This document shows positions 33,617 through 35,408 of a DNA stretch of 39,374 bases, piece after piece. The notes beneath the pieces are model-generated. The model saw only the letters and a program-made list of their open reading frames with translations, did no database searches and was not told the origin of the DNA. The stretch covers positions 1 to 39,374 of the IMG/VR virus record IMGVR_UViG_2913147268_000006. The stretch is one strand, 5' to 3'. Every line of letters starts with the position of its first letter. Position 1 is the first letter of the stretch. The DNA is from a virus. Lineage: Duplodnaviria > Heunggongvirae > Uroviricota > Caudoviricetes. Position numbers and translations under genes: made by a program.

Positions 33617-33919
33617 TTTATTCACAGGTGAGGTAGAGTGCGTGCGCCGGACACGGATAAGAATCCGGCACTGACAGTTTACTGAAAAGGATATATCCCT
33701 GAAAAGTCAGGGCATAACGCGAAAGCGCACGGCGAAGTTCGTCTCTCTGTAGGTAGTCGTTAAATTTTCGTCGACCGTGCGCTTCCGGTTGTGGCAATCC
33801 GCGAAATGGCGCGGCGGTAAGTATGGCGGGGTTATTCCTTCCCCCGTTGAGGACACCGGGTTGTCAGGTTGACCATACGCTTAAGTGACAACCCCGCTGC
33901 AACGCCCTCTGTTATCAAT

Positions 33920-33977
33920 TTTCTGGTGACTTTTGGCGGTATCAGTTCTACTCCGTGACTGCTCTGCCGCCCTTTTT
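33920..33977 (+). ncRNA. dicF: DicF small RNA (ftsZ-targeting sRNA) with intrinsic terminator
   Basis: Sequence tttctggtgacttttggcggtatcagttctactccgtgactgctctgccgcccttttt matches remembered DicF closely; GGCGG/CCGCC stem and T-run. Confidence 0.75.
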
Positions 33978-34451
33978 AAAGTGAATTTTGTGATGCGGTG
34001 AATGCGGCTAAGCGCACGCGGAACAGTTAAAACCAAAAACAGTGTTATGGGTGGATTCTCTGTATCCGGCGTTAATTGTTAACTGGTTAACGTCACCTGG
34101 AGGCACCAGGCACCGCATCAACAAAGTTCACTTCGGTGATGAAAGGTAGAGAAAATGTTGAATGTAGCTATTGAAAACCAGAACGGGTGGAATTATAGTG
34201 CACCTGCACCTCATAAAACGGGTGCCGGGCGTGGAAACCCGAAATCATTCACGGCGCATAACCGCGCTCAGGCGGTTTTTTTATGCGTTAAGCACAGCCA
34301 CATTCGCATTATGGTGGGGCGTGCAGGGCAGCCGCAAGGCTGGCCGGGTTCCGTGATGACCGGTATTTCCACCCCTGTACGTCTCACCACCCTTATGGTC
34401 GTGGAAAACCTCGGTGGTGAGTTAATCAAATTCATCGCGGAGGCTGCCATC

Positions 34452-35009
34452 ATGGCTACTATCCTTACCCTTTCTCACCCTGACGTAACCATCGAAAATG
34501 GTCGCGCTGTCACTACGTCTGTTGCGATCGCCGAGTTCTTTGGCAAACGCCACGAACGAGTGTTGGATAAAATTCGCAATCTGGACTGTTCAGCAAAATT
34601 CACTGAGCACAATTTTGTGTCGAGCGAATACACCGACTCAACCGGGCGCAAACTCCCAATGTACCAAATCACCAAAAACGGCTTCGTTTTCCTGGTGATG
34701 GGGTTCACAGGTAAAAAAGCCGCAACTTTCAAAGAAGCCTACATCGCTGAGTTCGATCGCATGGAGGAAGAACTGCGCCAGAATAACGCCCCGTCTCCCG
34801 ACAAAATGATTCACGGGGACGGACGCACCCTGGTTATCCGTCTCGACGAACACGGCAATATCAAATTCACTGAAACCGTTCCTGACGGCGCAATGGTCTG
34901 CACCCTGGATACCTTCCGGTTTTATCTGGAGAAACAAGGATGGACTCTTGTAAACCGGAGCGCAATTAAAAATATGACTGTGGAGCAATTGCTAAAAATT
35001 CATTGTTGA
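34452..35009 (+). CDS. Rha family phage regulatory protein
   Basis: Start at MATILTLSHPDV with GGAGG SD; Rha motif AIAEFFGKRHERVLDKIRNL; the 5' part of track ORF 34155-35009 is judged non-coding. Confidence 0.7.
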   Translation: MATILTLSHPDVTIENGRAVTTSVAIAEFFGKRHERVLDKIRNLDCSAKFTEHNFVSSEYTDSTGRKLPMYQITKNGFVFLVMGFTGKKAATFKEAYIAEFDRMEEELRQNNAPSPDKMIHGDGRTLVIRLDEHGNIKFTETVPDGAMVCTLDTFRFYLEKQGWTLVNRSAIKNMTVEQLLKIHC

Positions 35010-35019
35010 GGACGCGATA

Positions 35020-35208
35020 ATGGAAACGTCACTACCAAACGTTAATACGTCTGACGGGTGCTTTAATATTGGTGTTCTGCTCAGTAACAGGGATTTCACC
35101 GAGGATGCAATCAATATGAGAAAATATGAACCCTACCTGCTGAATGACAATTCCATACTCTCCAGAATTGCCCTTCTTAAACTCGGTATTTTCGGAGAGT
35201 GGCGATGA
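35020..35208 (+). CDS. dicB: Cell division inhibitor DicB
   Basis: 62 aa; METSLPNVNTSDGCF... similar to Qin DicB. Confidence 0.85.
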   Translation: METSLPNVNTSDGCFNIGVLLSNRDFTEDAINMRKYEPYLLNDNSILSRIALLKLGIFGEWR

Positions 35209-35408
35209 ACACATTATTCATACTCATTCTGACTGTATATCTCAATACTGGTGAGTCGCTTGATGCAATCACCGGCATGTACAACTCAATGAAAGAATGC
35301 ATGGCTGCCGCAGCGGAACAGAAAATTCCCGGCAACTGTTATCCGGTCGATAAAGTTATTCACATGGACAATAACGAAATCCCGGCAGGATTAAAAACAG
35401 CGCCGTAA
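35205..35408 (+). CDS. ydfD: YdfD-like small membrane/lysis protein
   Basis: ATG at 35205 overlaps dicB stop (ATGA); hydrophobic N-terminus. Confidence 0.7.
   Translation: MNTLFILILTVYLNTGESLDAITGMYNSMKECMAAAAEQKIPGNCYPVDKVIHMDNNEIPAGLKTAP

Follow-up and report, generated by a model that had tools for sequence, protein, structure and literature searches.

A putative RNA-gated antirepressor cassette of the IsrK-C4 type between dicF and dicB in a Qin-like prophage of Escherichia coli

The stretch of tailed-phage DNA analysed here (IMG/VR record IMGVR_UViG_2913147268_000006, 39,374 nucleotides [nt]; referred to as the window) carries at positions 33617–35408 the small RNA (sRNA) gene dicF, the division inhibitor gene dicB, and a gene with a Rha-family domain between them. 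A preliminary description had read this segment as DicF and DicB with an inserted Rha regulator, an arrangement differing from that of K-12. Rfam and Pfam searches bear out the presence and order of the three, all on the plus strand, and in the Qin prophage of K-12, with the order dicA, ydfA, ydfB, ydfC, dicF, dicB, ydfD, dicF is followed by dicB with no gene between. The extra Rha-domain segment is thus well founded, but it is not a lone regulator gene, since it comes with a promoter, the small RNAs IsrK and C4, and an antirepressor reading frame. The features are listed in Table 1. The locus corresponds to the dicBF (early-left) operon of a lambdoid prophage resembling Qin. None of its components falls outside known families, and what is new is the placement of an RNA-gated antirepressor cassette with its own promoter within the dicBF operon, just before dicB.

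Table 1. Features of the dicBF operon and its inserted cassette (window coordinates; aa, amino acids; ORF, open reading frame; GA, Rfam gathering score; PGAP, Prokaryotic Genome Annotation Pipeline)
Feature	Coordinates	Strand	Basis
Cro/DicC-like regulator, 75 aa	32159..32386	-	Pfam P22_Cro 2.5e-13; PGAP: Cro/CI family regulator
DicA-like prophage repressor, 135 aa	32463..32870	+	Pfam HTH_3
dicBp-like promoter, TTGACC-18-TAAATT	32972..33001	+	Promoter scan; assigned by position, as in K-12
YdfA-like DUF1391 gene	33078..33230	+	Pfam DUF1391 1.5e-28; PGAP
124-aa ORF	33242..33616	+	phrog_6937 4e-76; no Pfam match; occupies the K-12 ydfB/ydfC position
Non-coding DicF precursor leader	33622..33919	+	~97% identity to the K-12 ydfC-dicF interval
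DicF sRNA, 53 nt, intrinsic terminator hairpin then T-run	33920..33972	+	Rfam RF00039
K-12-type dicF-dicB spacer, 3′ end cut by the insert	33978..34130	+	Near-identical to K-12
Inserted cassette relative to K-12, 863 bp (promoter, IsrK, C4, leader, antirepressor)	34131..34993	+	K-12 alignment
P_isrK promoter, TTGAAA-17-TATAGT, sigma-70, predicted start ~34206	34171..34199	+	Promoter scan
IsrK sRNA, 77 nt	34206..34282	+	Rfam RF01394, 67.7 bits (GA 50)
C4-type antisense RNA	34307..34394	+	Rfam RF01695, 81.9 bits (GA 45), model positions 1–87 of 87
ant translation-initiation leader	34401..34446	+	b2 34401–34407 (GUGGAAA); a2 34432–34442
Antirepressor gene ant, 185 aa: Rha N-domain and AnrP-like C-domain	34452..35009	+	Pfam, PHROG, hhalign
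dicB, 62 aa, diverged allele	35020..35208	+	Pfam DicB PF05358 1.3e-32
ydfD-like gene, 67 aa, DUF1482	35205..35408 (ORF also from 35199)	+	Pfam DUF1482 3.5e-19

Alignment to K-12 places the breakpoints of the insert at 34130/34131 and 34993/34994. Homology runs at ~97% identity across ~33622–34123, from just past the ydfC stop, via DicF, to just before the dicB ribosome-binding site; it is lost at about 34124–34130 and restarts at 34994 with AAAATTCATTGTTGAGGACGCGATAATG, the dicB leader. K-12 has the sequence split by the insert in one piece, as do 3838 of 5426 complete E. coli genomes, the set used for all genome counts given here. A pseudogene annotated by PGAP as ‘partial DicB’ (34042–34125) falls within the dicF-dicB spacer; in K-12-type loci the dicB ORF has an in-frame extension, and this pseudogene is its upstream half, severed by the insert. 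The same spacer (33984–34125) has a sub-threshold match to STnc100, a Salmonella sRNA candidate (38 bits against a gathering score of 47), and the K-12 sequence is the same there. The insert itself is a self-contained phage cassette of the P1 immI or Gifsy-1 isrK-anrP type.

Several components of the cassette can be recognised. First, the P_isrK promoter matches the consensus at 10 of 12 positions, the best in a promoter scan of 32300–35600; it ends 6 nt before the 5′ end of IsrK, and its hexamer positions are conserved among related cassettes. Secondly, DicF, IsrK and C4 all exceed their Rfam gathering scores, on the plus strand and in that order, with both IsrK and C4 lying within the 5′ part of the annotated ‘Rha’ ORF, where the preliminary description had not noted them; IsrK closes with an intrinsic terminator at 34260–34282 (terminator scan). 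The Rfam c4-a1b1 model gives only sub-threshold matches in the window. Thirdly, C4 presents an a′ site in its hairpin loop (34349–34359, UUCCGUGAUGA) and a b′ site in a junction (34366–34372, UUUCCAC), and complements to both are found twice, as b1 (34231–34237, GUGGAAA) and a1 (34245–34254) in IsrK and as b2 and a2 in the ant leader, where a2 overlaps the Shine-Dalgarno sequence GGAGG (34439–34443) upstream of the ant ATG. Duplex prediction gives −20.4 kcal/mol for a′ with a2 including the GGAGG, and −13.7 kcal/mol for b′ with b2, the same b′ being complementary to b1.

The pairing between these three separated sites is conserved well beyond the window. Viral contigs scanned with a C4-core pattern, together with previously fetched loci, yielded 132 cassettes (111 distinct) with 71 distinct site combinations, and the a and b sequences differ widely among them yet change together at all three sites. 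In a 63-sequence alignment compared with 500 shuffles, 94.6% of the IsrK-C4 alignment cells are in standard pairs (64% in shuffles), 229 cells are altered on both sides (59 in shuffles) with both-side changes in 12 of 13 pairs, and the covariation score is 0.678 (0.181 in shuffles); none of the 500 shuffles matches the observed value for any of the three, and slid controls are 32–53% paired. Column-wise counting of C4 b′-b2 pairs was dropped, as MAFFT placed the b2 sites of the different classes out of register (54% paired), and cognate and non-cognate duplex energies were compared instead for 60 cassettes. The means are −25.8 and −17.0 kcal/mol, respectively, for C4 with the leader, and −29.0 and −20.0 kcal/mol for C4 with IsrK, such that cognate duplexes are ~9 kcal/mol more stable in both cases. 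The corresponding values for the window's own duplexes are −27.0 (C4-leader) and −27.4 kcal/mol (C4-IsrK).

These RNA elements bear directly on the protein annotation, in which PGAP calls a single 284-aa protein from ATG 34155 (ORF 34155–35009). If this ‘Ash-Rha’ fusion were the true product, the IsrK and C4 matches would be by-products of protein-coding sequence, and there are features that agree with this: no stop interrupts the ORF in the window or in most homologues at 82–90% DNA identity, an SD-like (Shine-Dalgarno-like) AGGTAGAG precedes the ATG, and the Pfam Ash profile (PF10554) matches residues 14–109. However, residues 14–109 correspond to IsrK plus C4, and among the 8–9 usable homologues in that identity range the variable sites are spread evenly over the three codon positions in 34155–34451 (29/36/31), whereas those in 34452–35006 have the third-position excess of a coding sequence (62/42/125); the C4-to-ant interval 34307–34451 is likewise without codon-position bias (12/11/10 and 8/10/11). 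The supposed coding region contains a near-consensus promoter as well as an intrinsic terminator, the substitutions within it preserve RNA pairing among the three sites rather than amino acids, and the equivalent region of Gifsy-1 is by experiment an sRNA and a leader (PMC4825925). We therefore regard the fusion as highly improbable. The 284-aa call is an over-call in which the first 99 codons are two RNAs, and the gene under protein-level selection is 34452–35009. Because codon-position variation is even and both a promoter and a terminator lie within the ORF, the Ash match is best taken as the conceptual translation of IsrK and C4, and many of the ‘Ash’ or ‘Ash-Rha’ proteins in databases are probably RNA genes that have been translated.

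The 185-aa product, Ant, has two parts. The N-terminal part matches Phage_pRha (PF09669; 1e-30, 106.5 bits against a cut-off of 29.9) across residues 120–205 of the long ORF, that is, 21–106 of the short protein. Residues ~100–185 belong to a small, sparse family, with about a dozen clusters among 1.8 billion representatives, and hhalign aligns the profile of this family with the C-terminal half of AnrP from Gifsy-1 (probability 95.8%, E 8e-9, 76 columns); the N-domain of AnrP is of the ORF6N type, and Ant has Phage_pRha in its place. PHROG families labelled anti-repressor match both halves of Ant, families labelled as regulators also match it, phrog_2379 is matched at 1.3e-8, and a PDB sequence search with Ant returned nothing significant. 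A common match to phrog_340 had prompted comparison of the C-domain with Rem, and this candidate homology is not supported (BLASTP not significant; hhalign probability 1.4%).

The simpler description of the locus, in which a stand-alone Rha-family transcription regulator sits between dicF and dicB and the main role is division control by DicB and DicF with phage resistance for the lysogen, can be weighed against these data. The Phage_pRha domain is present, PGAP and PHROGs call close relatives transcriptional regulators, and K-12 DicB protects against some phages (PMC6832061). A stand-alone regulator, however, leaves the promoter, IsrK, C4 and the covarying gating sites unaccounted for; in Gifsy-1 and in Shiga toxin (Stx) phages, the proteins governed by this RNA leader are annotated as antirepressors or have been shown to be such; the C-domain is that of AnrP; and the DicB of the window is only 58% identical to the K-12 protein with the resistance phenotype. 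We consider this description improbable.

The best explanation for the whole, to which we assign a probability of roughly 0.7, is that an IsrK-C4-antirepressor cassette occupies the position between the spacer and the dicB ribosome-binding site of a Qin-like dicBF operon. P_isrK would give rise to the 77-nt IsrK, ending at its intrinsic terminator, and to read-through transcripts that contain C4. The a′ and b′ sites of C4 would pair with a2 and b2 of the leader, such that coverage of the Shine-Dalgarno sequence at a2 blocks ant translation. Because IsrK carries mimics of both leader sites it can compete for C4, and through b1 and a1 it would do so and thereby open the ant ribosome-binding site; Ant would then inactivate a DicA/Gifsy-type repressor, so that the lytic promoter and dicBp would be derepressed. 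The repressing role of C4, the activating role of IsrK, and the activity and target of Ant are likely by analogy with homologous systems. In Gifsy-1, the only system for which it has been demonstrated, IsrK acts in trans to open an inactive read-through transcript so that the antirepressor-like AnrP is translated (Hershko-Shalev et al. 2016; PMC4825925), and in the P1/P7 immI region C4 has a′ and b′ sites together with a1b1 and a2b2 target sets (PMC8198154).

Several observations weigh against this explanation. All of the regulatory steps are assigned to the locus by analogy. In the window, a1 needs a 1-nt bulge to pair with a′, and the a2 pairing includes a G-U pair, which could mean that this copy is weakened. 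The long ORF with its plausible Shine-Dalgarno sequence is open in most homologues, so that dicBp read-through transcripts may also yield an N-extended protein. Two terminators, those of DicF and IsrK, lie upstream of ant-dicB. Finally, Rem is the one DicA antirepressor that has been proven, and the C-domain of Ant does not resemble it significantly; in addition, a 99%-identical Ant adjoins a repressor that is only 53% identical to that of the window.

The last two points concern the target of Ant. Repressors of the Gifsy type, DicA among them, are controlled by antirepressors and not through RecA cleavage (PMC10448788), and the DicA-like repressor of the window is 63% identical to K-12 DicA and 32% identical to the Gifsy-1 repressor. 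Because of this relationship to DicA, the homology to AnrP and the PHROG labels, we read Ant as most likely an antirepressor of a non-cleavable repressor of the DicA/Gifsy type, which may be the neighbouring one or one encoded by another prophage. An alternative is that Ant acts mainly in trans on the repressors of co-resident prophages, with the dicB side being no more than a permissive insertion site. Near-identical Ants do occur beside different repressors (the 99%/53% pair just described, and Ants of 69–78% identity beside a Rac-type repressor), the same cassette type also occupies other operons, where it lies after Q or between a cII-like gene and O, and trans-acting antirepressors are known in Gifsy phages (cited in PMC10448788). 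Against this, identity of the Ant C-domain peaks (98%) where the repressor is 96–100% identical to that of the window, in what is a small sample, and AnrP induces its own prophage, Gifsy-1 (PMC4825925). Action mainly in trans appears to us possible but rather unlikely. The prophage also carries rem (25722–25973, minus strand), the K-12 homologue of which is the proven DicA antirepressor, and with the cassette it may thus have two different antirepressors.

Candidate operators for the DicA-like repressor can be proposed from the sequence. A TTAG-N6-CTAA operator-like palindrome is located at 32985–32998, in the spacer of the dicBp-like promoter, and palindromes of this type are also present in the dicC-dicA intergenic region at 32394–32413 and 32445–32464. 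In the P_isrK region (34125–34215) neither this motif nor any other palindrome was found, judged by an operator consensus derived from this window only. By the same consensus, dicB-ydfD acquires from the cassette an upstream promoter with no DicA-type operator motif.

The DicF side of the insert is well preserved. DicF matches its covariance model at full length (33921–33972, model positions 1–52; 71.5 bits against a gathering score of 48) and differs from K-12 at 2 of 53 nt, a G to U at nt 12 and a U to C in the loop. The predicted terminator hairpin (−15.3 kcal/mol; K-12, −15.9) and the duplex predicted to form with the ftsZ leader (−36.9 kcal/mol; K-12, −38.5) are close to those of K-12, and disruption of the seed or terminator, which would have told against the preliminary description, is not seen. 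That description had also suggested that the ~300 nt upstream of DicF lack an intact gene and may hold decayed ydfB/ydfC-like sequence. The region is indeed non-coding, but the second part of the suggestion falls away: because K-12 has an equivalent non-coding stretch, the 340-nt ydfC-dicF interval, 33617–33919 is a conserved processing leader and not decayed genes. In K-12 this interval contains the RNase III site that gives a 190-nt DicF precursor (PMC10448788), the leader in the window includes the corresponding position, and RNase III and RNase E would be expected to release DicF from it in the same way. The replacement of ydfB/ydfC lies further upstream and outside the segment, in the form of the unrelated 124-aa ORF.

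On the other side, dicB retains its K-12-type ribosome-binding site and encodes a full-length protein (111.7 bits against a cut-off of 27, profile positions 1–60 of 62) that departs from K-12 DicB mostly in the C-terminal half; DicF and DicB both appear intact. As a family, DicB is characterised by MinC binding and by inhibition of division and of ManXYZ. The ydfD-like gene overlaps the dicB stop by 4 nt and its product is 65% identical to the K-12 YdfD lysis protein. The dicB start lies 10 nt past the ant stop, with no strong terminator predicted between them. Because of this, and because P_isrK is free of the TTAG-N6-CTAA motif, P_isrK read-through could reach dicB-ydfD independently of the DicA-like repressor; such co-transcription of dicB, like any feedback loop, is speculative.

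A more elaborate form of the proposed mechanism can be built on this, in which the cassette turns the dicBF operon into a commitment switch, with antirepression and division arrest fired together by one RNA decision. The operator-motif-free promoter would make IsrK continuously; when IsrK outcompetes C4, Ant would be translated; Ant would inactivate the DicA-like repressor of its own operon, positive feedback would release DicF, and ribosome-covered P_isrK read-through would carry transcription into dicB-ydfD. Parallels are the c4-icd-ant operon of P1 and the presence of the same cassette directly upstream of kilR in Rac-like prophages. We put this forward tentatively and think it doubtful.

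The distribution of the cassette extends well beyond dicBF operons. The dicF-spacer-to-cassette junction is present in 399 of the complete E. coli genomes (~7%), including sequence type 131 (ST131) strains, the cassette at 80% coverage or more in 394, and the whole 1792-bp layout at the same coverage in 271; the full dicF-cassette-dicB layout was found in none of 50,697 phage genome records. A literature search found no paper on such a cassette in the dicBF operon, nor one in which dicB, Rha and an antirepressor occur together. Rac-like prophages have a cassette of this type immediately before kilR, preceded by the same spacer; in e14-like and Stx phages one lies between a cII-like gene and O, and in Gifsy-1 one follows antQ. 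The cassette behaves as a mobile moron. A general association with division inhibitors was not upheld: dicB or kilR is downstream in only ~12 of ~127 cassette-bearing loci, and these have the same upstream spacer. A functional tie to division inhibitors is possible, and common descent explains the pattern equally well. A link to the e14 division inhibitor YmfM, considered for an e14-like prophage with the cassette after ymfL, was also set aside, as no relation was shown and e14 of K-12 is without IsrK or C4.

Other arrangements were seen among the collected loci. In some viral contigs (L043, 9644–11211; also L029, L030 and L081) there are two to three tandem IsrK-C4-small-ORF cassettes ~656 bp apart, every one with an a/b combination of its own. 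In the Rac-like prophage of E. coli O157:H7 F3113 (L003, ~2290–2345) the DicF position is occupied by a hairpin that shares the GGCGG/CCGCC stem and the T-run but differs in its loop and 5′ part; it receives no Rfam call, the same spacer, a cassette of this type and kilR come after it, and it may be a diverged DicF-like sRNA.

Whether the cassette is still active can be judged in part from these comparisons. It might be an inert remnant in a decaying prophage, with no current effect on dicF, dicB or induction, and the bulged a1 and wobble-paired a2 would fit this, as would the integrase frameshift in a related ST131 prophage and the splitting of the antirepressor gene by an IS3-family element in E. 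coli O145:H28 RM13516 (L005, 3004–4217), which otherwise has the ydfABC-dicF-cassette-dicB layout. However, all of the RNA elements exceed their Rfam thresholds over the full model length, the cognate duplex energies of the window are typical of the family, the ant coding sequence has a strong third-position bias among homologues, the junction with the dicF spacer is kept in the 399 genomes noted above, and the prophage around it is fully equipped with structural, lysis and replication genes. An inert remnant is quite improbable on these grounds.

The prophage around the locus has a complete head, tail, lysis and replication gene set and adjoins tRNA-Ser and mtfA, and the segment 33617–35408 is 100% identical to its counterpart in many E. 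coli isolates from humans, including several of ST131. Elsewhere in the prophage, hokD and the sok antitoxin RNA (Rfam, 106.7 bits) form a type I toxin-antitoxin pair at 26190–26514 on the minus strand. The window is identical to the ST131-type reference NZ_CP018991 to ~37664 and then diverges completely (37665–39374), and the exonuclease ORF (35488–37815) has a changed C-terminus. This terminal part matches only scrambled pieces of lambdoid tail genes (gpI/gpJ-like), none of the complete E. coli genomes covers 80% of it, and the divergence is either a real rearrangement or a chimeric join.

Three consequences can be drawn. First, the inducer of the toxic dicBF operon in K-12 is still an open question (PMC10448788), and if Ant targets the DicA-like repressor, then the strains with this layout (~7% of complete E. 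coli genomes) hold a natural trigger for DicF/DicB expression and prophage induction. Secondly, a widespread annotation is corrected, in that what is called the ‘Ash’ N-terminus in hundreds of ‘Rha family’ proteins is probably a pair of small RNAs and not protein. Thirdly, the many covarying a/b site combinations offer a ready set of orthogonal RNA switches.

Comparison with four known systems places the locus. With Qin of K-12 it shares gene order and orientation, the DicA-like repressor, its Cro-like partner and YdfA, the ~97% identical DicF leader, DicF and dicF-dicB spacer, the dicB ribosome-binding site, the overlap of ydfD with the dicB stop, and a rem gene elsewhere in the prophage. It differs in having the 124-aa ORF for ydfB/ydfC, the 863-bp cassette, and diverged DicB (58%) and YdfD (65%); and whereas Qin is a 20-kb remnant, the prophage of the window is near-complete. 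The CI RNA of P4 (seqA/seqC) is likewise a leader-processed RNA that pairs with complements upstream and downstream, IsrK is a structural homologue of P4 seqA (PMC4825925), and the Pfam ‘Ash’ label derives from this kind of region. In P4, however, pairing leads to transcription termination of replication genes and not to antirepressor gating, and sequence similarity is confined to a 45-nt blastn match.

The c4-icd-ant1/2 operon of P1/P7 immI is closer in logic. In both, C4 comes from the operon's own transcript and carries a′ and b′ sites, there are target sets upstream and at the ribosome-binding site, the cargo is an antirepressor, and a division inhibitor (icd in P1, dicB here) belongs to the same transcription unit. 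Unlike P1, in which icd is a separate gene coupled translationally to ant, the window has no icd-like coding ORF between C4 and ant, there being no stop before ant and no codon bias across 34307–34451; its division inhibitor is the unrelated DicB, located after ant; its upstream target set sits on an sRNA of its own, the terminated IsrK, with no repressor operator recognised at the promoter; and its antirepressor is not a close relative of P1 Ant.

The isrK-orf45-anrP cassette of Gifsy-1 is located downstream of the Q-like antQ, whereas that of the window lies in the early-left operon upstream of dicB, with no isrJ after the gene; AnrP has ORF6N where Ant has Rha, and the frame equivalent to orf45 is not closed before ant. 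The plan is nonetheless the same, with a promoter leading to IsrK and its terminator, a read-through leader containing a C4-like RNA (STnc1160 in Gifsy-1), a target site close to the Shine-Dalgarno sequence, and then an antirepressor of ~185 aa with a homologous C-domain, and the two leaders correspond base by base, the changes at their pairing sites being compensating ones.

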